A program made the position numbers and the translations under genes. 64,000 nucleotides of DNA, taken from Candidatus Kerfeldbacteria bacterium (GTDB taxonomy: Bacteria; Patescibacteriota; Patescibacteriia; UBA10025; JAHIVO01). The stretch lies in the NCBI GenBank assembly GCA_047946875.1, contig CP181398.1, forward strand, positions 207,154 to 271,153. The letters run 5' to 3'. A model generated the notes under the pieces. The model saw nothing but the letters and a program-made list of their open reading frames with translations. It did no database searches and was not told the DNA's origin. Positions 9,263-55,151 of the stretch are shown here, one piece after another (position 1 is the stretch's first letter; the number at the start of each line of letters is the position of its first letter).

Positions 9263-10396
9263 CTAGAATGGTAATTCGTTACCTGGATTATCTTCAGTCG
9301 GTGTACTAGATCTACCTTTATAATAACCAGTCGTTAGGATACCTATTACTACTAGTATCCATGGCCACCAGAGATATGTCTGAGCACAGAAATATCGGTA
9401 GTAAACTATTAAGCCAATGAAAGTTATTAGCAAAGGGAATATCCACCAGTTTGGTGATTTATGCTTTTTCTCGTAGATAAAATAGATTGCAAGAATCAAA
9501 GCGTAAATAATTAGTAGTGTAAATGTTAAACCGTGAGCGATGTTAATACATTCTTCATCTTCTTCTTTATTATTACCTTCTTCGTTATTATTTTCTTCTT
9601 CTTTATTACTTTCAAGAGTCATAAGTTCAGCTTTTTCAACATCTTCATTTAATGTTTCTTCGTTGATATCTTCATTTGTTTCAGTCAAATCTTCTTCTGT
9701 ATCTACGAGTTCTTCTTCATCTTCAGTTGGGATAATAGGGTCTGCTAGAAGAGTAATTGTATTTTTATGAACAATAATGCCAGGGGACATTTCAATATCT
9801 CCAATACTTGCTGTGACATATCCGATGCCTGCGCTATTTGCGGCTACCAAACCGCTAGTATTTACAGAAGTATAAACTCCGTCGGTAATCCATTTGAATT
9901 CAGCGTCAGTAACTGTATTTCCTGCTGCATCAAAAGCAACGGCAGTAAATTGTTGAGTACCTCCAATATTAATATTAGTAGGTTTATTGTTAGGAGTTAC
10001 GACTATTGAAGTTGCGATTCCTGCTTTTACATTAATTTGCCATACTTGATTGTCGTAGCCATTATTATCATCATTAGCTTCTACGACTATATTGTACATA
10101 CCAACAATATTTGGTTCCCAAGTTATAGTATTATCTACTAAAGTCACTCCTGTAGGTGAGTTTGTTAACTTGAAGCTAATATCATCATCATCACTATCTG
10201 TAGCTGTTAGCGAATACTGATAAGTTTGATCGGTCGTCACGACAAGTGTTGGATTTGATGTGATTACTGGTGCATGATTAATAGTTTGTGCACTAGTAAT
10301 ATTTGGTGTAAAAACCACCAATAAAATTGCAGTTAGACAGATGCTACTGTATATAAATGCCCTCCGCAAGGCTTTTTGCGTCATATTTGTGTACAT
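9263..10396 (-). CDS. cell-surface protein with Big_2 (bacterial Ig-like) domains, acidic linker and C-terminal TM anchor
   Basis: Signal peptide. Big_2-like SVNTSGLVAANSAGIGYVTASIGD. E/D/N-rich low-complexity linker. 3 C-terminal TM helices. Confidence 0.6.
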   Translation of the reverse strand: MYTNMTQKALRRAFIYSSICLTAILLVVFTPNITSAQTINHAPVITSNPTLVVTTDQTYQYSLTATDSDDDDISFKLTNSPTGVTLVDNTITWEPNIVGMYNIVVEANDDNNGYDNQVWQINVKAGIATSIVVTPNNKPTNINIGGTQQFTAVAFDAAGNTVTDAEFKWITDGVYTSVNTSGLVAANSAGIGYVTASIGDIEMSPGIIVHKNTITLLADPIIPTEDEEELVDTEEDLTETNEDINEETLNEDVEKAELMTLESNKEEENNNEEGNNKEEDEECINIAHGLTFTLLIIYALILAIYFIYEKKHKSPNWWIFPLLITFIGLIVYYRYFCAQTYLWWPWILVVIGILTTGYYKGRSSTPTEDNPGNELPF

Positions 10397-10498
10397 TGAT
10401 TAATTAGTTTAAAAATTATATAATTCCTTCATTTTATTAAAAAAAACTGATTTAGTCAAGGGTATTTAACTAAAAACCCCCCTAAATAATAGGAGGGC

Positions 10499-10507
10499 TG
10501 TGGATAA
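10499..10507 (-). promoter_or_regulatory. perfect DnaA-box-like 9-mer TTATCCACA (minus strand), about 100 bp upstream of the 9263-10396 gene
   Basis: Exact match to the DnaA box consensus. One of four co-oriented copies in promoter regions (see findings). Confidence 0.3.
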
Positions 10508-10599
10508 CTCAAATAAAATTATTTAAAAAATTAATGATTTGGTTTGTCCTGAATCTGCCTATCAACAGATAGGCGTAGTGAAGGAATCACGTCCGAAAT

Positions 10600-11568
10600 T
10601 TATATAATTTGGATTACTTTTGGCACTTGTTCTAAGAAGTGAGGGTGTAATAATATTGCAGTACCAGCGATTACTATTACAACAATTGACTGAATTATCA
10701 TATGAGGATGTTGAACTTTGATTTCTACAGCAATATTTATTAGTAGCATGATAACTAAGAACAATATTAATATTAAATAAAATTGCTGAGAATATTCAAT
10801 TAGCGTTGCTACAAATCCTTGAGATTTTTCACCTGCTAATTCTGCTGTACCTAATACATTAGCTGATAAGTCTGACTCAGGTATATTATTTTGTACTGGT
10901 AAAGTTTCTTCAGAGGCAAGCGGTTTTTCTTCTACTAGTGGTGGCTCTTGGTTTGTATTAGTAGGAGTTGTAGAAAGTGGAGTAGTAACTACTTCAACTT
11001 CAGTTTCACTAGATTGTTCAGGAGGAGCGACTACCACAATTGGTAATTCTATTGACCCACCGTCAATCCAGCCATTATTCTCGGAAACTAGGCCAAATGA
11101 TTCTTCAAATGTTCCTGCTTCACTTGGTGCTTCTAATATAAATTCAAATCTTCCTACTTCACCTGATCTAACAACTGATTGTGTTAGGATGGCAGGTCTA
11201 TAGTATTCAACCCAAGTTTCACTTTCAAATTCACTTTCTCGAGCAGTTGGGTTTGTTACATTTAGGGCGACAAAGTAATTACCACTGTTTGTCCAAGTAG
11301 CTGTACCGGTATTTTTGAAATCAACCCAGAAAGATATTTCTTCTAATGTTTTAATACCTAGGTCATTAGCACTTTGGTCAGTAAGTTCTGCCTTATAGTA
11401 AACAGGTTCTGGAGTAGGGGTTGGAGGGTTCAGGGACTGGTGTAGGTGTAGGTTCTGGAGTAGGGGTTGGTGCTGGATCAGGGACTGGTGTAGGTGTAGG
11501 TTCTGGAGTAGGGGTTGGAGTTGGTTCAGGGACAACAACTGGAGCAGGAGCTTCATAAGGAGTACCAA
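10600..11568 (-). CDS. C-terminal portion of a frameshifted CAP-domain surface protein (extracytoplasmic domain plus TM anchor)
   Basis: The frame switches within the PT-linker tandem repeat at 11393-11568. The N-terminal 50 aa of this ORF are an out-of-frame translation of the PT repeat. Confidence 0.5.
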   Translation of the reverse strand: MVLLMKLLLQLLSLNQLQPLLQNLHLHQSLIQHQPLLQNLHLHQSLNPPTPTPEPVYYKAELTDQSANDLGIKTLEEISFWVDFKNTGTATWTNSGNYFVALNVTNPTARESEFESETWVEYYRPAILTQSVVRSGEVGRFEFILEAPSEAGTFEESFGLVSENNGWIDGGSIELPIVVVAPPEQSSETEVEVVTTPLSTTPTNTNQEPPLVEEKPLASEETLPVQNNIPESDLSANVLGTAELAGEKSQGFVATLIEYSQQFYLILILFLVIMLLINIAVEIKVQHPHMIIQSIVVIVIAGTAILLHPHFLEQVPKVIQII

Positions 11569-12226
11569 AATGCTCTACTAGGATCATTGTTTCATGACCT
11601 TCTAATACACCTTCAATGACAGCTATTCCCATCTGAGTATATTTAGTATTCATTATATTTTTTTCATGGGTTGGACTATTCATAAAGGCGACATGAACAG
11701 AGGAAGCGCTGGAAAAATCCATTGCTAAATTTTCACCTGCAGCTGTGTAAGCATAGCCAGCTTCTTTAATAAAATACCACGGCTTTGTTCCGTCAGGAGC
11801 TGTGTGAGCAAAATAATCATTCTCAACCATATGCTGTGCTTTTAATAAAGCAGCTTGGTTTAATTGTGGACTAATAGTTAATGCAGCAACGCCAGCTTCT
11901 GCTCTAGATTGATTGGTTAGACTGAGTATTTCTGCTTCAGTGATTGTGGCGAATTGGCCAGGGGATGGGTATGATAAAAATAAAAAAGTAGTAACAAAAA
12001 CTTTTATACCAATAATGAAGTAAGTATAAATTCGTAGAGCAAGAGGTCTTAAAGCGTGAGGTTTATGACTATTACCTTTGTGAGGTATCAAAAAATGCTT
12101 AGCGTGTTTAGGAACACGTTTAGCATGATGAATCACCTTATGGCGAAGCTTCATTTTATTCTTTTGTTCTTCTTTTTTCTCTGTCATATAACTATAAGTT
12201 ATTATATCAGATACTAATTTCAACAA
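11393..12226 (-). CDS. CAP/SCP/PR-1 (YkwD-like) domain secreted protein, N-terminal portion with PT-rich linker
   Basis: N-terminal TM/signal. CAP motifs …LNQAALLKAQHMVENDYFAHT…GENLA…HVAFMNSPTHEKNIM…YTQMGIAV. Then (PEPTPTP)n. Confidence 0.65.
   Translation of the reverse strand: MLKLVSDIITYSYMTEKKEEQKNKMKLRHKVIHHAKRVPKHAKHFLIPHKGNSHKPHALRPLALRIYTYFIIGIKVFVTTFLFLSYPSPGQFATITEAEILSLTNQSRAEAGVAALTISPQLNQAALLKAQHMVENDYFAHTAPDGTKPWYFIKEAGYAYTAAGENLAMDFSSASSVHVAFMNSPTHEKNIMNTKYTQMGIAVIEGVLEGHETMILVEHFGTPYEAPAPVVVPEPTPTPTPEPTPTPVPDPAPTPTPEPTPTPVPEPSNPYSRTCLL
11400..11540. repeat. 54-bp tandem repeat (about 2.5 copies) encoding a PEPTPTP linker
   Basis: Direct repeat ggttctggagtaggggttgg…tcagggactggtgtaggtgta seen twice in a row. 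Coincides with the frame change. Confidence 0.7.
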
Positions 12227-12396
12227 TCAAGTCTACCATTCTTATTCCGTTTTGTCAAGGGGGTAGGCAGACAGGTTATTTTGGTATTTTGACTACCCGA
12301 TCGCACCTTAGAAAAGGCGCTCTCAATCAAATTTTAATGGATATTCTATTGCTTATAAGAGCATGCTTTTAGCGTGCGACCCCAAAAAACAATAAC

Positions 12397-12428
12397 CAAA
12401 AACAGCCTCTTAGCAGAGGCTGTTTTTG
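12397..12428 (-). terminator. intrinsic terminator hairpin (cagcctct-tagc-agaggctg) flanked by A/T runs
   Basis: 8-bp GC-rich stem followed by a U-run on the minus-strand transcript, immediately after the 12445 stop. Confidence 0.65.
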
Positions 12429-12444
12429 TATTTAAAGTATTCTA

Positions 12445-13911
12445 TTACTTTTTAGCTACAGTTAGTTTCATTGCTACCCCGGAAAAGATTAATAATAATC
12501 CTGCTCCGATAAGATAAGCAAATGTCATAGTTGAGCCACCTGTTACTGGTAGTTCTTCACCAAGTACTACAACTGCTCTTAATTCTACATCAGCAGTATC
12601 AAATACATTAGCTACTCCTTGTGCCCATACTTCGGCAGTATTCCTATAAATACCTGGCTCATTGTCTTTCAAGATAATAACATCGTAAGTAGTAGTTACT
12701 GAGTTACCAGGAGCGATAATGCCTAGCATCCAAGTATGAGTAGGAGCTAATGTGTCTGTGAATTGCATACCAGCAGCAATATGATCTATTAATACTGTAT
12801 CAACTGCCATAGAGTCTCCATCGTTAGTTATTACGATAGTGTAGCTAATAGTATCACCTGGGTTAGCAAATTCAACGCTAGCAGTTTTATCTATAGTTAA
12901 TGAAGGTAATGCTTCTTCACCTAGGACAATAGGGATTAATACTTCTTCTGCTACTGCGGTTGTAGCATCATCTTTGACAGCGGTAAGTCCTACAGCTTCG
13001 ACAGATGCAATATTTGTATAGTCTCTTGTTACAGCATCATCTTCAATGATTACTACGTATTCAATGGTTTTTGATTTATCACGAAGAATTGTGTCTAATT
13101 TCCATTGTTTTGCAGTGGTGCCATCTAGTTGATAGATTAAGCCTTCTGGCAATATATCATCTACTTTTACATCAAAGGCTGTTTGGTCGCCAGTATTTTT
13201 AACAACGATTGTATAATTTAAAGTATCACCAGGGTTTGCTTCTGTAACATCTACACTTTTTTCAATAGTTAAGTCTGGACCATCAGGAATAGAACAAGTA
13301 TCAAGGCTAGCAAAAGAAATAGCTAACTGACCCCAGTCATCACATCCGCCCCAAATTTCATCTGTGGCACGAATTTCAATAGTAAGTACACCTTTCATAC
13401 TTTCATCAAGTGGGAACTTTGCGGTATACCATTCTTCTGTAGAGTCATTTTTATCTGTATACGAATCAATAGGCACTTTATTTATATAAACTTCAAAGCT
13501 GTCATCATTGCTTAAACCGTCAAGATGTCTAACGGTAAGTAATTTAGCACCGTTATCACCAGCGTCTAGAGTAAAGAAGGCTGATTTATCATTATTTTTA
13601 TCACATGTTTTTTCGATCACCATTCTGAAGTTTCCGTCATCACCATATCCATAACTAGAACCGCCACTATGGATTATAGGATCACTCCATCCATATCCTG
13701 ATAAAATATGCCCAATCTCACTGGTAGTATCACCGATGTTTACAGAATCGGTGTTTTGATGATAATCACCACCATTATCACAGGTTAGTGTTGATATGGA
13801 TTGTGCATTTGTTGCTTGTGGTGCCAATAAAATGGCACCAAAAAGTCCAAAAATAGCCACCATTATGACCAAGGTGGATTTCATTTTGAACCTATTCATT
13901 ACATTTTTCAT
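12445..13911 (-). CDS. secreted DUF11-repeat protein with C-terminal LPXTG cell-wall sorting signal
   Basis: Signal peptide. Three DUF11-type repeats (…TIEKSVDVTEANPGDTLNYTIVVKNTGD…). C-terminus LPVTGG, a hydrophobic stretch, then KK. Confidence 0.7.
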   Translation of the reverse strand: MKNVMNRFKMKSTLVIMVAIFGLFGAILLAPQATNAQSISTLTCDNGGDYHQNTDSVNIGDTTSEIGHILSGYGWSDPIIHSGGSSYGYGDDGNFRMVIEKTCDKNNDKSAFFTLDAGDNGAKLLTVRHLDGLSNDDSFEVYINKVPIDSYTDKNDSTEEWYTAKFPLDESMKGVLTIEIRATDEIWGGCDDWGQLAISFASLDTCSIPDGPDLTIEKSVDVTEANPGDTLNYTIVVKNTGDQTAFDVKVDDILPEGLIYQLDGTTAKQWKLDTILRDKSKTIEYVVIIEDDAVTRDYTNIASVEAVGLTAVKDDATTAVAEEVLIPIVLGEEALPSLTIDKTASVEFANPGDTISYTIVITNDGDSMAVDTVLIDHIAAGMQFTDTLAPTHTWMLGIIAPGNSVTTTYDVIILKDNEPGIYRNTAEVWAQGVANVFDTADVELRAVVVLGEELPVTGGSTMTFAYLIGAGLLLIFSGVAMKLTVAKK

Positions 13912-14064
13912 AGATTATATACTTAGTAAATTGTTAGGTTTTTTATTTTTTTTGATATATTTATGTGTGAATTATTATACCACTACTATCGAAAAGAGCC
14001 AACCTTATTTGCTGAATGCTTAATATGTGGTCGGCTTTTCTTTATAGTAGTCTAAAAGTTAATT

Positions 14065-14730
14065 TTAGCTATTATTTTTTGTCTTTGCTATGGTTAGTCT
14101 GAGCACTATAACTGTAACCGTTAGTAGTATTAAAGCTACAATAAATATCAGTAATAATTGTCCTCCTGTTACTGGTAATTCAACCCCTAAAACAATTGGT
14201 TTTTTTGTTTCTATTGGATATTTTATTTCAGTTTCATCACCAAGTATTTTAGGTAGTATATAACCAATTTGAATATTAAATATTGATGATTTTAGTTGAT
14301 AGGGGTTGCCAACGCTAGTTGGAAAATCAGCATTAATAGTTAAAGTTTTAGTTTCAGATTTTTGAATTTTAATTAAACTTATTTCACCTAAGTCTAATAG
14401 ATTTGCTAAACTCTTTGGATCTGAAGAGCCACCATAAATTATATTTCCATTTTCAAAAATTTCAAATAGTATTTGATCATCTAAATCGAAGGTTGAAGTA
14501 CCGATGAATTTAATGCCGATAGTTTTTTCTTCTGTGGAGTTATTAGTAACTGTGATGGTCTCACTGGCCGTGTCTCCTGGCACGATACCTGTTTCAAAAA
14601 ACAGTGGATCGTGAGAAAATACAACGTCGAGGTCTCCGAGCTCAGCTTTGGCAGTTTGAGGGACAAAAATAAGAATAGCAATAATTATTATGCTTATTTG
14701 AAATATTTTTTTGTATAAAGTGTTTTTCAT
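14065..14730 (-). CDS. small secreted LPXTG-anchored protein (candidate fibre anchor, TapA-analogous by position)
   Basis: Signal peptide …QTAKA-ELGD. C-terminal LPVTGG plus TM plus basic tail. Lies directly downstream of the sipW-like gene. Confidence 0.5.
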   Translation of the reverse strand: MKNTLYKKIFQISIIIIAILIFVPQTAKAELGDLDVVFSHDPLFFETGIVPGDTASETITVTNNSTEEKTIGIKFIGTSTFDLDDQILFEIFENGNIIYGGSSDPKSLANLLDLGEISLIKIQKSETKTLTINADFPTSVGNPYQLKSSIFNIQIGYILPKILGDETEIKYPIETKKPIVLGVELPVTGGQLLLIFIVALILLTVTVIVLRLTIAKTKNNS

Positions 14731-14734
14731 ATAA

Positions 14735-16012
14735 TTAATTTGCTGGACACAAGGTTACATTGGGTTCTCCAGGAGAAGGTTCACAATTTTCTACGAAGTC
14801 ACTTGGTTGGTCAGTATCATAACCAACTGGATCTCTAGAAAGTGAATTTCCTTCAGCTACTCCAGGTACTGTTGGATTCCAAAGGTAGGTATTATTTATA
14901 TAACTCATTTGATCTACGATTTCGAACGTTTTATTTTTTAAGATAATGAAGTCACCAGCATTGTCGTATATTTGATAGATTGGAGGACCGCCTTCACCAA
15001 GTTCAATAATTTGAATATTTTCTAGATTTCCAAGATTAGTGAACCCCCAGTACTGAGTCCAGGTATTTGCACTTTTTGATAATAGAGCATAGCCATTGGC
15101 GGGTACATACTTATTTGCGCGGATCAAAAATATTGCTTCGTTATCAGTTAAGGTCCAATTTTTTAGGCTGATGTTAAAATCACAATTATTATAGATTTCA
15201 ACCCACTCATCCGGATTATTATTTTGTGGACCGTTTTGGTCGGGACCGTTCATATCTTCACCATCCAAGCCGTGTTCTTCATCAACGTCATAATATACTT
15301 CATTGATTACCAGACAGTCTGTTTCATCAATCCAGGCTCCAGATATCATAGTATTGTTTTTACTATTCTCAACATCTATAAAATAAGAGTTGGTGGCGAC
15401 GGTAGAAATGCCCAGGACACATAGTATTAAAATTATTATTTTTGTAATATTGACCTGTTCGGTTTTGACTGAGGTTTTTTTCTTTTTCTTTTGGATTTTC
15501 AACCATTCTTTTTTTAGTTTCTTTGATTCTTCCCAAATAATTATCGTGGCCGGAATGACGATCAAAATTATCAATCCTGGTAATGTTTTGGCGTAGCCTA
15601 TTGGGTAGCCGATATAGGGAATATGAAATAACATTTTGCCGATCACTGCAGTTTTTAGGACCGGTGCAGTATCAATATTTTCATTAGCATCACCTTTGGT
15701 TTGGAAGGTACTTTCGGTAATACTTTCAATACGATGAGTTGTAGTTTTTTTATTATTTGCTGAATCATTGAAGGTAATAACATCGCCAGTGCTGTATGTG
15801 TCAGCAGGAAGTACGACTGCCAAGCTACCCGTCTTTATATTTGGTTCCATAGATCCTGATTGCACAGTATATAATTTATACATACCTGGGATCGGTAAGA
15901 CAGAAAGTATAATAGCGATAAAAACGATTCCAAAAATGGAAATAACAATATTACGGAATAATTTTCCGGTTTTAATTTTTTTATTTAATTTTATTAGTTT
16001 GAATGATTTCAT
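14735..16012 (-). CDS. sipW: SipW-type (archaeal/ER-type) signal peptidase I fused to a C-terminal lamin-tail domain (LTD)
   Basis: Box B VQSGSMEPNIKTGS, box D TTHRI, box E KGDAN. A second TM follows. C-terminal LTD signature …VINEV…EWVEIYN…ISLKNWTLTDN…PANGYALL. Confidence 0.7.
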   Translation of the reverse strand: MKSFKLIKLNKKIKTGKLFRNIVISIFGIVFIAIILSVLPIPGMYKLYTVQSGSMEPNIKTGSLAVVLPADTYSTGDVITFNDSANNKKTTTHRIESITESTFQTKGDANENIDTAPVLKTAVIGKMLFHIPYIGYPIGYAKTLPGLIILIVIPATIIIWEESKKLKKEWLKIQKKKKKTSVKTEQVNITKIIILILCVLGISTVATNSYFIDVENSKNNTMISGAWIDETDCLVINEVYYDVDEEHGLDGEDMNGPDQNGPQNNNPDEWVEIYNNCDFNISLKNWTLTDNEAIFLIRANKYVPANGYALLSKSANTWTQYWGFTNLGNLENIQIIELGEGGPPIYQIYDNAGDFIILKNKTFEIVDQMSYINNTYLWNPTVPGVAEGNSLSRDPVGYDTDQPSDFVENCEPSPGEPNVTLCPAN

Positions 16013-16075
16013 AAAACCTTTATTCTCCCGCCCATTTTGAAGATTTGAGCGGGAGAGAAAAGCTTCAATTACTGT

Positions 16076-17242: not shown

Positions 17243-17348
17243 AATTTTTTTGATTATTAATTAATTTTTTAAATAGGTCTAACAATAAGTAGCCTACTTT
17301 TAAAACAGTTAGCCTCCCAAAAGAAGACTACTTAAACAAAAAGAACAG

Positions 17349-17373
17349 TAATTTAATAAATTACTGTTAGTTC
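17349..17373. promoter_or_regulatory. perfect palindrome aacagtaattta|taaattactgtt upstream of the tasA-like gene (candidate operator)
   Basis: 12-bp half-sites, perfectly symmetric, about 110 bp upstream of the 17242 start codon on the minus strand. Confidence 0.35.
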
Positions 17374-17600
17374 GACCTTTTTTAAATAAAACACCCTGAT
17401 TTTGACAATGATTAATTGGCCAGAGTAGTTTATTTAAAAAAAGTGAATTTAGTCTATACATTGATATAATGTTGCTTTTAAGTATTAGTAAATAGCACTT
17501 CCTCCTAAAGATGTGTTATTGCTGGTATTTTTTTATTTTTTATATTCTTTAACATTATAAGTATTAAGGTAACATCGGTCAAGTTGATAACTCTCACCCT

Positions 17601-17631
17601 AAAAAGCAGGTCCGTAAGGACCTGCTTTTTG
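17601..17631 (-). terminator. intrinsic terminator (gcaggtcc-gtaa-ggacctgc) with flanking A/T runs
   Basis: 8-bp GC stem plus T-run, immediately after the stop of the giant gene. Confidence 0.7.
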
Positions 17632-17644
17632 TTATCAAAATGTG

Positions 17645-20600
17645 TTATTCTTTTTTACTTACAGTTAACTTCAGTGTATATGCAGAGAAGAGTAAGATTA
17701 GAGCTGCTGCAAATATATATAGGAATTGCATAGCTGAACCACCAGTTGTAGGTAATTCTTCACCTAATACTATAGGGGCTCTTACTTCTACATTTGCGAA
17801 GTCTGTTACATTCCCATGATTATCGGCCCAAGCAACTGCAAGGTTTTCATAATCACCAGGTAAGATTGTACCATTGGAGATTGCTGTGTAAGTGATAATT
17901 TTTGATTCACCGTGTAAGATATCTCCTAGGTTAAATGTTTTTGTAACTGTACCGTCTATGAATGTGAAACCAGCAGGTAGTAAGTCTTGTAATTTTACAT
18001 TGATAGCTACAGCTTCAGCTTGAGCATCACCAATGTTAGTAATAACAACAGTGTAAACTACACTATCGCCAGGATTGATAAATTGTTTATCAACTGTTTT
18101 CTCTATTACTAAGACTGGGTCTGCTTCTTCAGATTTTACAGTAGGTATTCTAACTTCTACTGTGGCGATATCATCAATACTTGGATGATTATCAGACCAG
18201 GTAATAGCTAGATTATCATAGAATCCTGCATCTACTTCTGAACCTATTAATACATTATAAGTAGTAGTGATAGAATCACCAACTATCATATCGCCAAGTG
18301 ACCATTCACGAGTTGCTAGACCAGTGTCTTCATAAACGAATCCATCTGGTAAAAGGTCAGAAAGTATAGTGTTGATAGAAGTATCAGTACCGACGTTAGT
18401 AACTACTACAGTGTAGGTTACTAAGTCTCCTCTGTTAACATAAGTAGTTGGTTCTACAGTTTTAACTATTGTTAAGACAGGAGCTGACTTTACAGTTACT
18501 TTTGATTCGTCCTCTAAATATTGTGGATCTGAATTATCAGCAGCAATTTTTGCGATGTTAATAATTTCAGTTCCGTTTGCTACAGGTACATTTAATGTAG
18601 CTGTATAAGTAACGAATCCAGAAGCGTTAGGTTGTTGTGTTCCGAAATCCCAAGTAATAGTTCTAGTTGTATCATCCCATTTTGGAGGAGTGACAGTAGG
18701 AATTGAAGAAGTAATAGATGCTACGTCTAGATTTAATTCAGCAGGGATAATGTCAGTTAAGACAACGTTAGTAGCAATAGAATTTCCAGCTACACTCCAG
18801 TCAATGTGATAAGCAACTGTCTCAGTAGTTTCTAAGATACCGTCGCCACCTTGAGCTACTTCTTGATCATTATATTTATCTAGAGTTAAAGTAATCTTTT
18901 CAGCATTACCGAATTCGAAGTATTCTTCCTGGCTATTGTTATCATAACCTGACATTATGACGATTGGACCGAATACACCGCCTACAGGGGCATATTGATA
19001 CCAACCAGTTTGCATTGTTTCAGATAACCAGTAAGTGCCGGCAACTATTCCGGTGAATTCAAACATTCCGAATTCATTGGTAAGTGTTTGGGCAATGATT
19101 GTTCCAGGTTGACCAGTATTGTCTTCGTGTAGGTTAATTTCCCAACCTTGTAAACCAGTCTCTTGGCCATCCCATTGTCTGTTATTATTAATATCTTCAA
19201 ATTTGTAACCTGTAATTATTCCAAGTTGGAAATTACCGAAGTTGTTGTCTTGACTGTTAGTACCACTTACAACAGTAATTGTTGCTGGGTCAGTAGTCAT
19301 TTGTGTCCAACCTGTTTTTAAGGTTTCAGTTACATTGTAGTCACCAGCTTGTAGGCCAGTGAATGAATAGTAACCGTTTGCGTCAGTAACATCAGATGAA
19401 CCGTTATCAAGATTGATAGTCCAACCAGCTAAAGCAAGTTCTCCAGTATCCCAAGTTTTATTTCCATTTACATCTTCGAATTTATATCCAGAGATTTTAC
19501 CTTTTTTATAATTACCAAAGTCAACATCAGTGATATCTGAACCACTTGTAATTGTAATTGGTGCTGGGTTAGAGGTAGTTCTTATCCAAGCAGTGTTTGA
19601 CTCATCTTCAGTTACTGTCCAGTCACCAGCAGTTAAACCAGTGAATTCATAGGAACCGTCGGTAAGTGTTTGTGTGCTTGTTGCCCAGTTACCGGAGATG
19701 TAGATTGTCCAACCAGCAATAGCAGGTTCTCCAGCATCCCATACTCCGTCACCGTTTAGGTCATTAAATTTATGTCCTGAGATTTTTGTATCTTTGAAAT
19801 TACCGAAATCAATATCATCAACATCTTGGCCACTTACCGCAATAATATCTGCTGGATTTGTAGTTGTTTGTGTCCATCCAGTTTGTTGTACTTCACGCAC
19901 ACGGTATGTACCTGGAGCAAGATCATCAAAACTATATCTTCCAACACCGTTGGTTACAGTGATATCAAGAACATTATTTTGTGCATCACGTAATTCAATC
20001 GTCCATCCTACTAGACCAGTCTCGCCACTATCTTTTGTACCATTGCCGTTTATATCTTCAAATTTTTGTCCTGCGATATAAATATTATCAAAGTTACCGA
20101 AGTTATAACCACTAACATCAGTTCCTGAAGTAACGTCTATTGGTCCTAGAATTTGTCCCTGGCCTGGGAATGTTTGTGTCCAACCGCCCTGTTGTACTTC
20201 ATTGAGGTAGTAGGTTCCTTTTTCTAGACCAGTGAATTCATATCTACCGTTTGAGTCAGTTATATCAGTATCAAGTACCGTGGACATATCATCAGCAAGT
20301 AATTGGATAGTCCATCCTAAGAGTGTAGGTTCTCCTGTATTCCAAATTCCGTCACCATTAAGATCGTTCCATTTTTGTCCGGTGATTTCACCGAGTTTGA
20401 AATTTCCAAACCATACACTTTCTAAATCTCCATTAGTAATTGTAACTGTTTTGGTCAATGTTCCATTTCCCGGTTCTGTGTTTGTCCAACCCGTTTGTTG
20501 GGTTTCAACTACATCATATGAACCAGTTGGAAGATTTCTGATTATAAGGTATGGAGAATCTTGTGGATCTTGACCGGTTGTTCCGGATGCGACTACTGTG

Positions 20601-23600
20601 CTTCCATCTTTTACTTCAAAATACCACCCTGGCATATAAGGTTCATTGGAATCTTTGTCTCCGTCACCATTAAGGTCATTATATTTTTTAATGCGAAGAT
20701 CACCGGTATCAAGTGCATTACAAAGTGTTATTTCAGTAGTGTTGTTTTTACTTACATTAATGTTTATTGGTAGAGTAATTCCTTCAAGATTAGTACAGTT
20801 GAAATTAGCACCTGGAGTGTTTGAGTACCATCCAACAAAGTGATAGTTAGCTACATCACCGTCATTTTCTGTTACATCATATGTGCCTGTAACAACTGTT
20901 TCATTACTGCCCATATCTCGGGCTGGTGTTTCAGAATCAATACCCCAGACAAATCCTAGAGCATTGGCTTCTGTATTTCCACCATCAAAGGTGCCATCAC
21001 CGTTAGTGTCTACTTCTTTATTTACTTTAATATCACCAGTGTCTCTTGTATTACAAAGTGTTATTTCAGTAGTGTCATTTTTAGAAACATTTATATTGGC
21101 TGGTAGTGAATGATAAGTAGTTGTTTCGCAAGTAAAATCTGATCCATTAACATACCATCCAACAAAGTGATAGTTAGCTACATCACCGTCATTTTCTGTT
21201 ACATCATATGTGCCTGTAACAACTGTTTTATTGCTGCCCATTGCACGAGCTGGAGTTTCAGCATTGATTCCCCAAACAAAGCCGAGGTTATTTGCTTCTG
21301 TGTTACCGCTTTCAAATGTACCATCGCCATTGGTATCAATTTCTTTGTTTACTTTAATATCGCCAGTGTCTCTGGTGTTTGTAAATGTGCAATCTACACC
21401 AGATTTGGTTAATTGAATTGTTTTTGTTTCAACAGCTCCGTAGCTGACGCCGTCACATGTTAAATCGGTAACATGATAGTTTGTCATCATATCTTCTGAA
21501 ATTGTATATGAACCTGTTGTTAGAGTTCTTCCTTGGCCTGTTGATATATTCTGTTCACCATTTGCAATATCCCATCTCCATGTATCTACATTATATTCAT
21601 CTACTATTCCGTTACCATCAGTGTCTAAGTTTTTATGGACAATAATTTCACCAGTATCACGATTGTTTCCAAACCATACACTTTTTAAACCTCCATTAGT
21701 AATTGTAACTGTTTTGGTCAATGTTCCATTTCCCGGTTCTGTGTTTGTCCAACCTGTTTGTTGGGTTTCAACTACATCGTATGAACCAGTTGGAAGATTT
21801 CTTATGATAAGGTATGGAGAATCTTGTGGGTCTTGACCGGTTGTTCCTGATGCGACTACTGTGCTTCCATCTTTTACTTCAAAATACCAGCCAGTCATGT
21901 AGTAATCATTACCATTTATGATTCCGTCACCATTAAGATCGTTATATTTTTTGATGCGAAGATCACCAACATTTCTTGTATTAGTGAAAGTACACACAAC
22001 TCCTTGATTAGTAAGGTTTACTTGTACTGACTCATTTGCACCGTAGCTTACACCATTACAAGTAACATCAGTTACATGGTAACCGGTTTTCATATCTTCT
22101 GAAAGAGTATATGTATCAGTTGCAAGTGTTCGTGTTGAACCAGTTGCAATATTCTGTTCGCCGTTTTGGATATCCCAATTCCAGTTAGTTGCACCAAATA
22201 CATCTACTTGTCCATCGCCGTTTGTATCAACATTTTTATAAACTGTTAAATCTCCAGTATCACGAACGTTAGTAAATGTACAGATAGTCGTTCTTCCGTT
22301 AAAAACTTCTGCATTATTGATAGTAGAGCCAGTTCCGTTCCACACTTGAGGAACATCACCGATCAATACACATTCCCAACCACTTACTGTGTATCCTTGA
22401 GGGGAAGTTTCTGTAACTGTGTAAATGTCTGTAGGTATTGTACCTACGTTATATTCTCCGTTTGTTCCTGTCCATCCGTTATCATTGAATTCAGAACCAT
22501 CAACCGTTACATAAACATCTAGCGGAGCGCCTGCCTGATCAACTTTACGAATAATTAAGTCACCAGTATTACGTGTATTTGTAATTGTACATTCTGCAGT
22601 ATTACCTGTAGTTACTGTTACTGAATTGCAAGTTGAATTAGTCAATGAATATCCAGGTATAATTTCTTCTTCAACGGTATAATCGTTAGGTGTTAAATCA
22701 TTAAACATTACATAGTTTGAAGTTGTAGCAGGATAAATGTATGGATTACCTGATCCAACAATTCTAAATCCAAAGTCTTCTGGTAAGGCTGTGCCACCAT
22801 TTACAACTTTGATTACTTTTAAATTACCGTTACAATCCATTTCAACATGGGTATTAACAATATTGCTGTAAATGTCTCCAGTTTCATTACTCCAGATCCA
22901 AGCTTGGTTTGGAATATCAAAATCATCACAGTCTAGCGGCTCAGTTATTACAGCTTGAAATATTACAGCGCCGGATTCTCCAGGGCTTACTACGTGAGCA
23001 TTTGCTACAGGATTTGAGCCATTGAAGTTTCCTTCAAAAGTAATTCCTTGGCCATCAACATCACCGGATATTAATTCTGTATGAATACCGTTGTATGTTA
23101 AACGAGGGTCAAGATTATCAAACAATTGAACTCCACCGCCTGTACAAATTGCTTCGCCGGTATTTATATATTCCAATGTATATTCCAATGTATCACCAAC
23201 TGATGCAGTTGTTTTATCAACAGTTTTTGTAATAACTAAATTACATACACCAGGAACATTTCCGAAATTCACATCTGTTTCATTTTGACCAGCCAAGAGA
23301 GTTACATTGTGCACATTATTAGTTGGATATGTTTGAATCCAATTAGTTTGTTGTGTTTCTGAAACAGTGTAGTTGCCTGGATTTAAATTTACAAAAGAAT
23401 ATAAACCATTTGAATCTGTAGTTGTAGAAGCAGTAGCATCACCACCAAGATTTATTGTCCAGTTAGCTAGTCCTGGCTCAGTTGCCTGCTGCCAAATACC
23501 ATCATTATTAGAATCTTTCCATTTATATCCAGAAATATTTCCTTCTTGTCGGTCATTAGTATAAGTACAAGTAACATTTTCACCTTCTTCAAGGTTAATT

Positions 23601-24655
23601 GATACGGTTGGGATAGTAACTGTTTGATTGCCGCCATTAGAAGTAGTGACAGTACAAGCAATGTTATTTAATGCCCATCCTGCAATTACTGATTCTGTTA
23701 TTGAATAAGTTGTAAAATCAATAATATCATTATAAGTTTTGGTATTAGTTGAAGTTCCATCATCAATCAGTGAAAAAATTGCTGGGGTTAAACCACCAGT
23801 TGTAGTGTAATCGAAACTTTGTGGACCTTCAGGAATAGCATCTTTAATTATTGTAATGGAAGCTGGGTAAATTACCGCTTCGGCTGATAATGATAGATCT
23901 TGACTGCCACCAGATCCGTTAAGTTCGACCAAACTTGAGTGGTAAGGGGAACCAGGAATAGCTATGGCTGAATTTTCATCGCCCCAGTCTTCTCTAGTAG
24001 AAATGTGTCCACCCCAAGCTAGCACTGGATTAGCTACATCAGCGGTAAAAGTTACAGTGATTATTGCTGTTTTATCGCCAACAAAGCCACTACCATCTGG
24101 GTATTCATAATTTCCAACGTTGGTTATGGTTCCACCAAATAAGGTAAATACACCTGGGATTTGTGTTATGCCAGAATTTTGAGGATCATTAGGAATTGGA
24201 TATGTAGTTGGTGTTAATCCAGGAATACCAATATCAGGATCAGCAGTTAAGACAGTTTCATTATAAGTTGTTAGGTAATCTATGGCATGTTTGTCAGCTT
24301 TTGTGGTATCCCATTTAATGGTTATTGTATTATTAGTGGAATCGATTGTTAAACCGCCCATTTCCATTTTATACGGGATAGTATCACCTTCATAATATAC
24401 TGATTTACTAGCTCCAAGGTTTCCTGTTACCCATTCTTTAGCATCTGTAGCGCATCCATCTGTACTTGGGGATGGTGCTGGATCATTAGCACATTGACTT
24501 ATTTTTGCTGATTCAGCAGCTTGAGCCTCATTTGGTGCGATAAATACCCCAATCATGGATGTATTTAAGATAAGTGCTAGAGTTGCAATAATATTAAGAG
24601 TTTTATATAGAACTCTCTTCGTTTTTTGCGGATGTGGTAATAAATTGATTTTCAT
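17645..24655 (-). CDS. giant (2336 aa) LPXTG-anchored surface adhesin with DUF11 and SdrD/CnaB-type B repeats
   Basis: Signal peptide. N- and C-terminal DUF11 repeats. More than 10 SdrD B-like repeats (G(K/Q)K(F/W)xDxNGNGxxDxGE…GW(T/E)I.L…(T/D)(D/T)xxGxYxF.(L/G)..GxY.V.E). C-terminus LPTTGG, a hydrophobic stretch, then KKE. Confidence 0.8.
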   Translation of the reverse strand: MKINLLPHPQKTKRVLYKTLNIIATLALILNTSMIGVFIAPNEAQAAESAKISQCANDPAPSPSTDGCATDAKEWVTGNLGASKSVYYEGDTIPYKMEMGGLTIDSTNNTITIKWDTTKADKHAIDYLTTYNETVLTADPDIGIPGLTPTTYPIPNDPQNSGITQIPGVFTLFGGTITNVGNYEYPDGSGFVGDKTAIITVTFTADVANPVLAWGGHISTREDWGDENSAIAIPGSPYHSSLVELNGSGGSQDLSLSAEAVIYPASITIIKDAIPEGPQSFDYTTTGGLTPAIFSLIDDGTSTNTKTYNDIIDFTTYSITESVIAGWALNNIACTVTTSNGGNQTVTIPTVSINLEEGENVTCTYTNDRQEGNISGYKWKDSNNDGIWQQATEPGLANWTINLGGDATASTTTDSNGLYSFVNLNPGNYTVSETQQTNWIQTYPTNNVHNVTLLAGQNETDVNFGNVPGVCNLVITKTVDKTTASVGDTLEYTLEYINTGEAICTGGGVQLFDNLDPRLTYNGIHTELISGDVDGQGITFEGNFNGSNPVANAHVVSPGESGAVIFQAVITEPLDCDDFDIPNQAWIWSNETGDIYSNIVNTHVEMDCNGNLKVIKVVNGGTALPEDFGFRIVGSGNPYIYPATTSNYVMFNDLTPNDYTVEEEIIPGYSLTNSTCNSVTVTTGNTAECTITNTRNTGDLIIRKVDQAGAPLDVYVTVDGSEFNDNGWTGTNGEYNVGTIPTDIYTVTETSPQGYTVSGWECVLIGDVPQVWNGTGSTINNAEVFNGRTTICTFTNVRDTGDLTVYKNVDTNGDGQVDVFGATNWNWDIQNGEQNIATGSTRTLATDTYTLSEDMKTGYHVTDVTCNGVSYGANESVQVNLTNQGVVCTFTNTRNVGDLRIKKYNDLNGDGIINGNDYYMTGWYFEVKDGSTVVASGTTGQDPQDSPYLIIRNLPTGSYDVVETQQTGWTNTEPGNGTLTKTVTITNGGLKSVWFGNNRDTGEIIVHKNLDTDGNGIVDEYNVDTWRWDIANGEQNISTGQGRTLTTGSYTISEDMMTNYHVTDLTCDGVSYGAVETKTIQLTKSGVDCTFTNTRDTGDIKVNKEIDTNGDGTFESGNTEANNLGFVWGINAETPARAMGSNKTVVTGTYDVTENDGDVANYHFVGWYVNGSDFTCETTTYHSLPANINVSKNDTTEITLCNTRDTGDIKVNKEVDTNGDGTFDGGNTEANALGFVWGIDSETPARDMGSNETVVTGTYDVTENDGDVANYHFVGWYSNTPGANFNCTNLEGITLPININVSKNNTTEITLCNALDTGDLRIKKYNDLNGDGDKDSNEPYMPGWYFEVKDGSTVVASGTTGQDPQDSPYLIIRNLPTGSYDVVETQQTGWTNTEPGNGTLTKTVTITNGDLESVWFGNFKLGEITGQKWNDLNGDGIWNTGEPTLLGWTIQLLADDMSTVLDTDITDSNGRYEFTGLEKGTYYLNEVQQGGWTQTFPGQGQILGPIDVTSGTDVSGYNFGNFDNIYIAGQKFEDINGNGTKDSGETGLVGWTIELRDAQNNVLDITVTNGVGRYSFDDLAPGTYRVREVQQTGWTQTTTNPADIIAVSGQDVDDIDFGNFKDTKISGHKFNDLNGDGVWDAGEPAIAGWTIYISGNWATSTQTLTDGSYEFTGLTAGDWTVTEDESNTAWIRTTSNPAPITITSGSDITDVDFGNYKKGKISGYKFEDVNGNKTWDTGELALAGWTINLDNGSSDVTDANGYYSFTGLQAGDYNVTETLKTGWTQMTTDPATITVVSGTNSQDNNFGNFQLGIITGYKFEDINNNRQWDGQETGLQGWEINLHEDNTGQPGTIIAQTLTNEFGMFEFTGIVAGTYWLSETMQTGWYQYAPVGGVFGPIVIMSGYDNNSQEEYFEFGNAEKITLTLDKYNDQEVAQGGDGILETTETVAYHIDWSVAGNSIATNVVLTDIIPAELNLDVASITSSIPTVTPPKWDDTTRTITWDFGTQQPNASGFVTYTATLNVPVANGTEIINIAKIAADNSDPQYLEDESKVTVKSAPVLTIVKTVEPTTYVNRGDLVTYTVVVTNVGTDTSINTILSDLLPDGFVYEDTGLATREWSLGDMIVGDSITTTYNVLIGSEVDAGFYDNLAITWSDNHPSIDDIATVEVRIPTVKSEEADPVLVIEKTVDKQFINPGDSVVYTVVITNIGDAQAEAVAINVKLQDLLPAGFTFIDGTVTKTFNLGDILHGESKIITYTAISNGTILPGDYENLAVAWADNHGNVTDFANVEVRAPIVLGEELPTTGGSAMQFLYIFAAALILLFSAYTLKLTVSKKE

Positions 24656-24715
24656 ATGTTTTATTTATTCTTTATATAATTAATATATATATAATAAGTT
24701 GTTAATAAGGTAAGT

Positions 24716-24771
24716 GAGGTCCTTCAGCCATATTGGCTTCAGGATGACGCTTTGCGTCATTTTTCTAGGTC
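24716..24771. repeat. REP-like hairpin element, inverted copy of the element at 7513-7564
   Basis: Its reverse complement gacctagaaaaatgacgcaaagcgtcatcctgaag…aaggacctc aligns with 7513-7564. Confidence 0.6.
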
Positions 24772-25133
24772 TTTTTGTTTTTTGGTAACTAAAAAACCAA
24801 CACCAAGTTATAAAGTTTTCAAAAATTGTAAAAAATGCATAAAATAATAGCATTTTTAACTAATTTTTTTGCGTTTTTAAACTAAATTTGTTTTTTGTTA
24901 GGTTTATAACCTAATGTTGGTCTTATAAGTCCTCCTATACTTATGTCCAAAGAGCATATCCCCCCGTTTGTTGTGATTAATGAGCAATTTTAATATTTGA
25001 TGATATAACACTTTTGTTTTTTTGTCAAGTCCTTTTGTATTTATTTCGGTCTCTATATCTTACCCCTATCTAAGTATATGTCAATGAATTTTTTATCATT
25101 TTTTGATCTTAAAATTAGGACAAAAATGAGGGT

Positions 25134-25193
25134 TGTGGATAAACTAAAACGAGCAATATTTTTTGTTTCTTGATTATATGTGAATAATCCACA
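25134..25193 (-). promoter_or_regulatory. pair of DnaA-box-like motifs (TTATCCACA perfect; TAATCCACA one mismatch) in opposite orientation, each followed by CTAAAACGNGCAA
   Basis: Seen directly in the 650-bp AT-rich region upstream of the giant adhesin gene. Confidence 0.3.
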
Positions 25194-25304
25194 AATGCTA
25201 AAACGCGCAAGTTTTTTGAAAATAAATAAGACCTAAAAACAGTCTGTCTTCCGACTGATAAGATAGGGATATTTTTGACAATTCAGCCAAATATGTTGTA
25301 ATAG

Positions 25305-26069
25305 CTACTTTTTGCTATTTTCAGGTCTTAGTAATAATAAGGAGAGACTTAGGGGTAAAAATGAAATTATTGCCAATATTAAGAAATATTGACTAATGTT
25401 TAAGTTATTACTTTCTGGAGTTAAATTATGTCTATAAGTAGTTCCTAAAACTTGTTTATTCTCTGATTCCTCATTTTTTGTTATAATAGTTAGTACAGTT
25501 TGTTCATTTTTTATTGAATCTTCATCAATATTAGGTGTAATATCATTATTGATGTTATTTGCTCTAACGGCAGGTAAAATTGTGGTTGGGGATAGTTGTT
25601 GTAGGCCGAACAATTGCACTACTATAGTATGTGAATTATTGGATATTATGGCAATTCCTGTTTCATTAAATTTGTTATTTAATATGTTATCTCGGTGAGC
25701 ATTGCTATTCATCCAAGCATTTATTGCTTCTTCAGTCTGTACCCAGTCTAAAGCTAGATTTTCACCGATTATTTGATAATTATAGTTTTCTCTTATTGCA
25801 TAATCCCATGGCATAAGACCATTTGGATCTTTATGATCAAAATAATCATTATTGATCATGTCATTCGCTCGAATTTCTGCAATATGAGTTAAAACGTTAT
25901 TTAATACTAATTCTGGAATTTGTTGATTTTGCCGTTCAATATTTATCTCTTTAAAGACACTTTCAACAGAAATCTCAGATGCTAATGCGTGATTAGGTAA
26001 TAAAAAAAATAGGCAAAAAATAAAGCCTACTCCAATTACAAATTGTATATTGTTATTAAATCGTTTCAT
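25305..26069 (-). CDS. CAP/SCP (YkwD-like) domain protein with signal peptide and C-terminal TM anchor
   Basis: CAP motifs …HIAEIRANDMINNDYFDHKDPNG…GENLA…AWMNSNAHRDNIL…ETGIAI. Second CAP paralog in the island. Confidence 0.65.
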   Translation of the reverse strand: MKRFNNNIQFVIGVGFIFCLFFLLPNHALASEISVESVFKEINIERQNQQIPELVLNNVLTHIAEIRANDMINNDYFDHKDPNGLMPWDYAIRENYNYQIIGENLALDWVQTEEAINAWMNSNAHRDNILNNKFNETGIAIISNNSHTIVVQLFGLQQLSPTTILPAVRANNINNDITPNIDEDSIKNEQTVLTIITKNEESENKQVLGTTYRHNLTPESNNLNISQYFLILAIISFLPLSLSLLLLRPENSKK

Positions 26070-55147: not shown

Positions 55148-55151
55148 TTTT

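Follow-up and report, generated by a model that had tools for sequence, protein, structure and literature searches.

A putative wall-anchored TasA-type fibre locus with a SipW-lamin-tail fusion in a Candidatus Kerfeldbacteria chromosome

The stretch of DNA analysed here, called the window throughout, comprises 64,000 nucleotides (nt) of a Candidatus Kerfeldbacteria chromosome (contig CP181398.1). Two of its products, the SipW-LTD and 221-residue proteins described below, match NCBI proteins of a Candidatus Kerfeldbacteria bacterium (locus tag ACNFW9_01155, contig of 1,309,938 bp; Patescibacteria, Parcubacteria group) with 100% identity. It is AT-rich, with a guanine-plus-cytosine (GC) content of about 0.31, and its plus strand holds almost all genes. 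The exception is a 17-kb block at positions 9263-26069, in which eight consecutive minus-strand genes encode secreted or anchored proteins. We propose that the core of this block (12445-17242) is the version of the tapA-sipW-tasA or sipW-bsa fibre operon that belongs to the Candidate Phyla Radiation (CPR), and that its products would build a fibre anchored to the cell wall; for this model as a whole we estimate a probability of about 0.6. A first-pass annotation, made from the sequence alone, had already described the eight genes, and their coordinates and strand were all verified. Its gene-by-gene domain reading (CAP, DUF11-LPVTG, small LPVTG, SipW fused to a lamin-tail domain, TasA-like, and 2336-residue LPTTG proteins) was likewise borne out by the Pfam and NCBIfam scans of open reading frame (ORF) translations with which gene families were assigned.

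The gene at 16076-17242 (minus) encodes a protein of 388 amino acids (aa) which, judged by its profile matches, is a subunit of the TasA/camelysin family with a SipW-type signal, and which is predicted to form fibres as their major subunit. Its match to TIGR04088, the model of the SipW-cognate N-terminal signal (22.6 bits, cut-off 19), covers residues 16-47. The N-terminus (...ASTSA followed by FFSDTEVSEGNQFTSGAIDL) reads as a SipW-type signal and then a donor-strand segment, the mature N-terminus FFSDTEVSEGNQFTSGAIDL corresponding to AFNDIKSKDATFASGTLDL of TasA. Fibre assembly of TasA is driven by a donor strand, residues 28-38 (PMC9674648), and the N-terminus of TapA, AFHDI, gives TasA its first donor strand (PMC9674648, PMC10151520). 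A search of Protein Data Bank (PDB) sequences with the single protein returned nothing useful, and the family profile alone reached TasA: built from 28 TasA-like members, it matched B. subtilis TasA near full length (5OF1, E=3e-4; fibre 8AUR, E=6e-4), with profile positions 35-250 aligned to TasA 5-210. Furthermore, PF12389 recognises 26 of these 28 members, the best of them at E=1.1e-12. The protein also has an extra C-terminal domain of about 150 aa, whose fold is unassigned.

The neighbouring gene (14735-16012, minus; TIGR02228 and PF00932) encodes a SipW-type signal peptidase fused to a lamin-tail domain (LTD). Its predicted topology runs from a first transmembrane (TM) helix, TM1, through the peptidase domain, TM2, a lysine-rich loop, TM3 and a disordered motif to the LTD. 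The first 180 residues (15473-16012, minus) hold TM1, a signal peptidase I domain of the endoplasmic reticulum (ER)/archaeal type, TM2 and the lysine-rich loop, and score 90.3 bits on TIGR02228 against a cut-off of 51.85. The catalytic-type residues S54, H93, D108 and D114 are invariant in 23 homologues; SipW is said, by Tjalsma et al. in 2000, to use Ser/His. The AlphaFold2 (AF2) model of this domain has a predicted local distance difference test (pLDDT) score above 90, and Foldseek matches it to human SEC11 (SEC11A/C; 7P2Q, E=1.6e-5) and to SipA of S. pyogenes. The Bacillus SipW equivalog model NF046067 gives 104.8 bits, below its cut-off of 190; we read the domain as a SipW-like enzyme that is not the Bacillus equivalog.

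At the level of sequence, this protein fuses the SipW-type peptidase to a second, internal TasA-type signal peptide and to the LTD. The predicted signal and a donor-strand-like segment occupy aa 186-227 (15332-15457, minus; ...IIILILCVLGISTVATN followed by SYFIDVENSKNNTMISGAW). TM3 and the disordered stretch read ILILCVLGISTVATN followed by SYFIDVENSKNNTMISGA, and the lysine-rich loop and TM3 are arranged topologically like an n-region followed by an h-region. A non-iterated hidden Markov model (HMM) of bona fide TasA-like N-termini, which replaced an iterated TasA profile that had absorbed LTD sequence, matches aa 194-226 of the fusion protein (E=4.4e-8), and each of the 23 SipW-LTD proteins in the alignment keeps the internal signal motif. 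LTD genes that stand apart from SipW open with the same TasA-type signal. Since this signal is internal to the fusion and also opens the stand-alone LTD genes, the enzyme appears to be joined to one of its own substrates. In the AF2 model of the whole protein (mean pLDDT 83), residues 204-227 fall below 50 and are disordered, while the LTD, an Ig-like domain (14738-15325, minus; PF00932 38.8 bits against 34.3), is modelled at about 90. Its Foldseek matches are lamin tails, with the lamin A/C tail 3GEF at E=6.6e-6 and a TM-score of 0.64, and 3GEF, 1IFR and 3JT0 at 0.62-0.64. A literature search, limited in reach, found no link of lamin-tail domains with SipW or TasA.

The third core protein, of 221 aa (14065-14730, minus), has no Pfam match, carries an ordinary signal peptide and ends in a sorting signal with LPVTG at 14164-14178. 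Profile comparison gives it a TasA fold that lacks the donor segment, together with a complete LPXTG signal. Aligned by hhalign, 31 sequences of this small-protein family and 29 TasA-like sequences match over the jelly-roll core with a probability of 97.3% and E=1.8e-11; the alignment starts at residue 40, after the donor-strand region. The mature small protein starts ELGDLDVVF..., equivalent to G42-TLDL of TasA, and is without a counterpart of TasA residues 28-41; the TasA N-terminal HMM matched no small-family protein. The best-conserved motif of the family, N-x-YQ-x-K-x-x-x-F-D-h-x-h-G, lies in the C-terminal strand and aligns with NKYQGNSIKLQFSFEATQ of TasA, the reported partner strand of the incoming donor (residues 220-230; PMC10151520). 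Foldseek matches the small-protein model to 8AUR, the TasA fibre (rank 2), to 7UEG, the archaeal bundling pilus, and to FimG, the pilin domain of PapG and archaeal threads, among others; the best of these matches are all donor-strand filament subunits.

The small family comprises 1199 representative clusters at E up to 1e-3 and is without a Pfam model. The C-termini of its members include nine with LPXTG-like motifs, some 17-20 with a TM helix and a basic tail, and seven with GxGxDxL repeats; an anchor of one kind or the other (LPXTG-like or TM) is present in about three-quarters. The small proteins with GxGxDxL (RTX-like) repeats end with a conserved tripeptide, C-E-L, and have no anchor. Their genes lie in related loci of the Microgenomates type (related loci are numbered with the prefix L): L007 7078-8229, L008 2421-3614, L030 11188-12447, L037 11127-12137, L043 5487-6626, L085 2002-3231 and L020 5544-6353.

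The three core genes form a module that is widespread in CPR genomes, a grouping that the first-pass annotation had missed, as it had the TasA fold of the small protein. Relatives were retrieved with SipW-LTD alignments from a genome collection, made up of species representatives to which the source genome does not belong, and from metagenomes, and ORFs were called on the returned loci; the metagenome scan returned nothing with the single SipW-LTD protein and 20 loci with the alignment. The resulting 53 modules, nearly all labelled as CPR bacteria, have the order of one to three TasA-like genes, SipW, LTD and a homologue of the small protein, often with a CAP gene (16 loci). SipW and LTD form one ORF in 20 modules and adjacent ORFs in the other 33, and the LTD is immediately followed by a small-family gene in 37 of the 53. 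In 39 modules the sequence extends 1.5 kb or more upstream, and 38 of these have a TasA-like gene there by a strict, non-iterated criterion. The window belongs to the type in which SipW is fused to the LTD, and its small protein ends in LPVTG. In three protein representatives (P0052, P0253 and P0256) SipW is fused directly to the small LPXTG protein, without an LTD, so that the module occurs with two types of peptidase-partner fusion.

Sorting signals, adhesins and the sortase

Besides the small protein, two larger products of the block carry sorting signals. The 488-aa protein (12445-13911, minus) has a signal peptide, an N-terminal domain without known family, two DUF11/CLIPPER domains (PF01345 98.7 bits, DUF7507 60.6 bits) and LPVTG at 12538-12552; its orthologue in the related locus L001 is 70% identical. 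DUF11 has been renamed CLIPPER and is an isopeptide-stabilised stalk domain of fibrillar adhesins (PMC12617251). The 2336-aa protein (17645-24655, minus) has a signal peptide, a stalk of repeats and LPTTG at 17741-17755. Its Pfam domains are six SdrD_B, seven SpaA (SpaA/SpaA_2/SpaA_4), four DUF11/CLIPPER and CarboxypepD_reg repeats, and its C-terminal 282 aa, a cassette of two CLIPPER domains and the sorting signal, are 41% identical to the 488-aa protein. The counterpart of this giant adhesin in L075, a 58.8-kb metagenome contig, has 2088 aa, LPETG and 33% identity. Within the giant gene, at 20403-21965, direct repeats of 300 nt at 91% identity lie 1263 nt apart, and further repeats of 236 nt match at 83%; such repeats are a possible source of length variation or of assembly collapse. 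The repeat search was confined to this gene.

The SpaA-type and CnaB/CnaA-like (CLIPPER) domains of the giant protein, and the presence of three LPXTG proteins in one cluster, could recall a SpaA-type pilus, in which these proteins would be pilins polymerised by a class C sortase encoded elsewhere. We find this scarcely credible. Neither the locus nor the window holds a class C sortase, and a search with a crude regular expression detected no YPKN-type motif in the DUF11, small and TasA-like proteins and a chance YKKG in the giant one. Moreover, both repeat-stalk proteins resemble fibrillar adhesins, not pilins (PMC12617251). We infer that the 488-aa and 2336-aa CLIPPER/SpaA/SdrD proteins are independent sortase-anchored fibrillar adhesins, which share VLGEELPxTGG with each other.

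In all three proteins the motif LP(V/T)TG (12538-12552, 14164-14178 and 17741-17755) leads into a hydrophobic stretch of about 24 residues and then a K/R tail, and each protein has an N-terminal signal peptide. The three canonical signals reported by the first-pass annotation are therefore confirmed as tripartite, and its own reservation, that the motifs might be fortuitous and lack a C-terminal TM segment and positive tail, is ruled out. An extended motif, (V/I)VLG(E/V)ELPxTGG, is common to the three. Nine orthologues that share 51-77% identity with the small protein all keep the L, P, T and G of the motif, at a mean column identity of 64%, which argues that the signal is under selection and not fortuitous. 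The sequence (I/V)LG-E-E that precedes each LPXTG (in 12445-13911, 14065-14730 and 17645-24655) recurs as IPIVLGEEALPSL in the stretch that separates CLIPPER domains and as KILGDETEI nearer the N-terminus of the small protein; it might be a linker peculiar to this lineage or serve in recognition.

We fail to detect a sortase gene in the window, in agreement with the earlier annotation. PF04203 had no match in the 58 ORFs scanned with Pfam out of the 60 of at least 100 aa; the two outside the scan (5423-5752, minus, and 54804-55106, plus) are each contained in a longer ORF. A six-frame search of the window for TLxTC met only a chance SLDTC within the DUF11 gene. An iterated search from S. aureus SrtA, which covered the window and 94 related loci down to ORFs of 60 aa, recovered no window ORF and found true sortases in related loci only. 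Five FtsX-like proteins of about 300 aa, drawn in as the iterated profile drifted, were removed, lowering the number of loci with a sortase from 13 to 10. These ten loci carry the gene within 10 kb, in or beside the module, as confirmed by PF04203; in L026 and L027 it comes straight after the gene for the small protein, which there ends in LVATG or LAATG. A sortase gene unlinked to the genes of its LPXTG substrates is normal, so its absence from 64 kb is no anomaly.

Alternatively, the genome might be without a sortase, and the LPXTG motifs with their TM helices and basic tails might be membrane anchors or be processed by another enzyme. The empty 64 kb would fit this, as would the plain TM anchor of many small-family members and the result of a search with a CPR sortase profile, in which no match from the source contig stood among the best 120 of 442. 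We nevertheless judge it very unlikely, in view of the invariant L, P, T and G in the orthologues and of the same extended motif on three unrelated proteins. Sortases are, moreover, common in CPR bacteria (the ten related loci; the 442 matches, which include the phylum Falkowbacteria), and the window itself encodes peptidoglycan machinery, namely a penicillin-binding protein (PBP), a Mur ligase, BacA, YceG and SLT. On the basis of the conserved signals, the sortases of related loci and these peptidoglycan genes, we estimate that the Kerfeldbacteria genome very probably does encode a sortase.

The proposed fibre and its alternatives

In the model that we favour, SipW would cleave the TasA-like precursor and also its own C-terminal LTD moiety, the latter after ...VATN, so that the LTD would be released outside the cell. 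The mature LTD would consist of a donor segment joined directly to a complete Ig-like domain and, like TapA, could offer a donor strand only. It would prime the polymerisation of TasA-like subunits by donor-strand exchange and would end at the distal tip. The last free donor strand would enter the donor-less small protein, the putative wall-anchored acceptor at the base of the fibre, and a sortase encoded outside the window would link this protein covalently to peptidoglycan, yielding a wall-anchored fibre. Since the small protein is without only the donor segment and the LTD has only the donor segment, the two would be an exactly complementary pair. The likely role of the surface proteins is attachment to surfaces or host cells, or the formation of a matrix.

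The same genes could also stand side by side without coupling, encoding free TasA matrix fibres, an LTD matrix protein, a monomeric small wall protein and adhesins that act alone. Every component indeed has its own export signal, and several transcription units are possible, given the hairpins after the DUF11, CAP1 and Big genes and the gaps of 400-650 nt described below. TasA/CalY filaments of B. cereus are sortase-independent (PMC13082335), and the small family is sometimes without an anchor. Mere co-location is, on the other hand, hard to reconcile with the order of TasA-like, SipW, LTD and small genes, which is strictly kept across very divergent CPR lineages, or with the SipW-LTD and SipW-small fusions. 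The exact complementarity of a donor-only with a donor-less protein, and the sortase gene directly after the small gene in L026 and L027, also speak for coupling. Overall, we consider the uncoupled arrangement unlikely.

Several observations weigh against a wall-anchored fibre. The polarity of the fibre, the assignment of tip and base and the pairing of donor with acceptor are pure inference on our part. The AF2 model of the small protein, made from a nine-sequence alignment, has a mean pLDDT of 62.7 and its Foldseek TM-scores are about 0.3-0.4; the small-family profile found no sequence match in the PDB. The small proteins of the Microgenomates type end in GxGxDxL repeats, and an anchoring role is accordingly not universal. 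The strict N-terminal HMM is significant in only 29 of 57 LTD proteins fused or adjacent to SipW, the motif being visible by eye in most of the others. The TasA-like protein of the window scores 18.5-22.0 bits on PF12389 against a cut-off of 22.5, and over its N-terminus only. To these points must be added the CPR sortase profile, with no source-genome sortase among the best 120 of its 442 matches, and the frameshift in CAP1 (see below), owing to which at least one component may be inactive if this is not an assembly error.

Extended to the whole radiation, the model would describe a CPR-wide organelle not described before, a TasA-type fibre with both ends capped, by the LTD at the distal end and by a sortase-linked, donor-less subunit at the other. 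We put this forward as a tentative and rather doubtful possibility.

Accessory proteins and chromosomal setting

The remaining three genes of the block encode two CAP proteins and an Ig-like membrane protein. CAP1 (10600-12226, minus) is a membrane-anchored protein in which the CAP domain, the PT-rich linker and a beta-rich domain of uncharacterised type are followed by a TM region at the C-terminus. CAP2 (25305-26069, minus) is a secreted CAP/SCP (YkwD-like) protein with a signal peptide, a C-terminal TM helix and basic tail, and no LPXTG; it also matches TIGR02909 with 95.4 bits. Both CAP domains exceed the PF00188 cut-off of 21.1 bits, with 64.8 bits for CAP1 (11431-12226) and 68.4 for CAP2. 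The first-pass annotation had recognised the domain and PT linker of CAP1 but overlooked a +1 (1-nt) frameshift at about 11408-11430, which breaks the gene into two overlapping ORFs. The DNA of the PT repeat, gaaccctccaacc, has one base too many for the repeat register, and in L001, an 85%-related locus, the orthologue is a single ORF of 535 aa. With this L001 protein as query, tblastn aligned residues 1-285 to 12226-11408 in frame -1 and residues 275-548 to 11424-10603 in frame -2, mapping the frame switch to 11408-11424. The frameshift is either a homopolymer assembly error or a sign of a recent pseudogene; the true start of CAP1 is probably the ATG at 12187.

CAP1 and CAP2 are only 29% identical. 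Two CAP paralogues had been said to bracket the locus; both are CAP proteins, but CAP1 is the second-to-last gene and does not lie at the edge. The CAP2 orthologue in L075 lies in the same place beside PCMT, with 39% identity. The outermost gene (9263-10396, minus) encodes a 377-aa Ig-like surface protein with a signal peptide, an acidic linker and three or four C-terminal TM helices. Big_9 (21.5 bits) and Big_2 (19.8 bits) each stay just under the Pfam cut-off, so that the earlier description holds for an Ig-like surface protein but not for the Big_2 call as such; the L001 orthologue is 69% identical and has a weak He_PIG annotation. A CAP gene is present in 16 of the 53 related modules, and this repeated linkage suggests an accessory function. 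We regard the two CAP proteins, like the Ig-like membrane protein, as conserved and probably accessory components of the cell surface.

A terminator-like hairpin with a 14-bp stem followed by a T run lies 3' of the DUF11 gene (12397-12428, minus) and likely marks where the core transcription unit stops. The region is rich in terminator-like sites (22, against 8.7 +/- 3.6 in shuffled sequences), and those after the DUF11, CAP1 and Big genes suggest several transcription units. Promoter-like sites are not enriched (72, against 72.1 in shuffles), and no promoter is claimed. The giant adhesin gene is bordered by gaps of 400-650 nt, in which we looked for credible small ORFs and found none. No Rfam family and no tRNA gene were detected within 9263-26069, and no tRNA gene in the whole window.

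Housekeeping genes lie on both sides of the block. One flank encodes an ABC transporter, a CBS protein, Fpg, DUF212 and BacA; the other encodes PCMT, ManC, YceG, an amino-acid kinase and the L10 leader with L10 and L12, and beyond it lies a division and cell-wall cluster of mraZ, mraW, PBP and Mur genes. The BacA/DUF212/Fpg/CBS flank is kept in L001. In L075, whose L10 is only 53% identical to that of the window, the order is L12, L10, kinase, YceG, ManC, PCMT, CAP, two TasA-like genes, SipW-LTD, a small LPITG protein and the 2088-aa LPETG adhesin.

The locus had been presented as an island, and one may ask whether it is a horizontally acquired, strain-variable adhesion island whose cognate sortase was left behind or sits on another element. 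Its GC content (0.35-0.39, against about 0.31 in the flanks) does differ, and the distance in relative synonymous codon usage (RSCU) between the block and the rest, 0.82, exceeds that of all 500 random gene partitions. GC at third codon positions (GC3) is nevertheless the same, at 0.232 for the block and 0.224 elsewhere in the window (p=0.58); the surplus is found in second codon positions (0.371 against 0.307, p=0.002) and thus reflects amino-acid composition. As for codon usage, a foreign origin read from the RSCU distance was rejected: the five other minus-strand genes of the window are as distant from the plus-strand genes (0.903) as is the block (0.897), so that the shift is an effect of strand. 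Third-position strand asymmetry is very strong here, with a GC3 skew of +0.40 in forty plus-strand genes and about -0.3 in minus-strand genes (-0.33 in the block, -0.25 in the five others). Cumulative GC skew rises monotonically across the window, which places the whole of it on one replichore and makes the surface locus a 17-kb lagging-strand block.

Comparison with relatives points the same way. Surface proteins have diverged faster than the flanks between the window and L001 (69-85% identity, against 79-94%), and relatives differ in their adhesin complement, as an acquired island would lead one to expect; yet in L001 and L075 the locus lies between the same housekeeping genes, and both flanks persist even at an L10 identity of 53%. 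The variation concerns which adhesins are present and how fast the proteins diverge. General Pfam scans found no integrase family, and the window is without a tRNA gene. An acquired island is therefore largely refuted and most improbable, and the alternative that the first-pass annotation itself had named, a conserved core of uniform composition, is what the GC3 values and the retained flanks reveal. The locus is old, chromosomal and vertically inherited, and is not a mobile island.

By composition, the only candidate for foreign DNA in the window is the gene at 50160-50990 (minus). Its 276-aa product has no Pfam family and two helix-turn-helix-like repeats, and its GC3 is the highest in the window (0.354). 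A small GIY-YIG endonuclease gene at 54009-54326 (plus) has a 59%-identical homologue at L001 4631-4933, between the DUF11 and CAP genes, a site of the surface locus from which it is absent in the window; the different sites suggest a mobile, homing-type element. A gene for an IS200-like Y1 transposase (327-887, plus) lies 8 kb from the surface block, and a distant homologue (28% identity) is found at L075 18887-19492, directly after the giant adhesin gene.

Other genes of the window stand apart from the surface locus. Two large overlapping ORFs, 43163-45754 and 45709-48429 (plus), jointly resemble one alpha-2-macroglobulin-like protein (Big_5, bMG3, A2M_BRD, A2M), and the second has a Hint/PT-HINT/Vint (intein-like) domain at aa 149-302; a gene for a Hint-domain protein also occurs at L002 6008-7150, directly upstream of the TasA-like genes. 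Three proteins have HisKA_7TM sensor domains (51512-52921, 55116-56585 and 59994-62852), of which only that at 59994-62852 has the kinase core. Beside these genes, at 59292-59972, lies one for an N-acyl amino acid synthase like FeeM and autoinducer synthases, with a very low GC content of 0.235. A 264-aa polytopic membrane protein without Pfam family and with an HELSH (HExxH-like) motif is encoded between lexA and mraZ (36391-37185, plus). Finally, the 768-aa product of 30883-33189 (minus) matches no Pfam family above threshold, DUF6923 being a weak hit; a TM segment lies in its middle, and its C-terminal region resembles a beta-propeller.

Known fibre systems and significance

The closest parallels of the core are in Gram-positive fibre operons. 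As in tapA-sipW-tasA of B. subtilis, a gene for an ER-type SipW lies beside those of its substrates, the TasA/camelysin major subunit has an A-F-x-D donor strand, and a second SipW substrate joins a TasA-like N-terminus to an unrelated, complete Ig-like domain, which is TapA there and the LTD here (PMC9674648, PMC10151520). In contrast to B. subtilis, SipW and the TapA-like substrate form one protein, the accessory domain has the fold of a lamin tail and not that of TapA, a third, donor-less TasA-fold protein carries LPXTG, and CAP proteins and giant LPXTG adhesins belong to the locus of a CPR host. With the sipW-bsaA-bsaB-bsaC operon of C. perfringens the locus shares SipW and several TasA-family paralogues, one of them with LPXTG (PMC11580942, PMC7395162). 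In most strains of that species a BsaB homologue with LPXTG is encoded next to srtB, and LPxTG, SpaA and sortase genes are reported to be frequent members of TasA-family operons (PMC11580942). The Kerfeldbacteria locus differs in having no adjoining sortase and no vWA protein, and its anchored paralogue lacks the donor segment; the LTD fusion is absent from Clostridium. In B. cereus there is a sortase-independent variant with CapP (PMC13082335).

Outside these operons, AbpA and AbpB of the archaeon Pyrobaculum are comparable as a donor-strand-polymerised TasA-fold subunit and a TapA-like minor component, the latter proposed as both initiator and adhesin (PMC9245690), and the small-protein model matches the archaeal bundling pilus 7UEG. 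Unlike the locus described here, the archaeal one has no dedicated signal peptidase gene and no sortase signals. TasA homologues of PF12389 have been noted in Patescibacteria (PMC9245690). The 488-aa and 2336-aa proteins resemble adhesins of the MSCRAMM SdrD type and CLIPPER adhesins in their signal peptide, putative head, tandem SdrD_B/SpaA/CLIPPER stalk and LPXTG (PMC12617251); they differ in showing no serine-aspartate repeat region, in their CPR host and in the unlinked sortase. Chaperone-usher pili (Fim/Pap) are likewise donor-strand fibres with end subunits unable to donate or unable to accept. There is no evolutionary relationship, however, and no chaperone or usher, and here anchoring to peptidoglycan by a sortase is proposed.

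Against this background, four features appear to be new: the fusion of SipW to its substrate, the LTD cap, the donor-less anchored subunit as a family and the conservation across the CPR. The narrower question of the sortase and the island has a mundane answer, since an unlinked sortase is normal and the supposed island is core genome.

CPR bacteria, or Patescibacteria, are an abundant and largely uncultured group, believed to spend their lives attached to other cells, and their attachment structures are poorly known. If the model is correct, the locus of the window and the 52 related ones would define a conserved fibre system with an initiator or tip, a polymer and a wall anchor, and would give bacterial lamin-tail domains linked to SipW their first functional context. 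It would also describe a gene fusion of a peptidase with its substrate, and would add a donor-less TasA-fold family of about 1200 representative clusters that has no Pfam model. Such a fibre would merge two principles of Gram-positive fibres, donor-strand exchange and sortase anchoring, and could be a device by which episymbionts hold on to their hosts or to surfaces.

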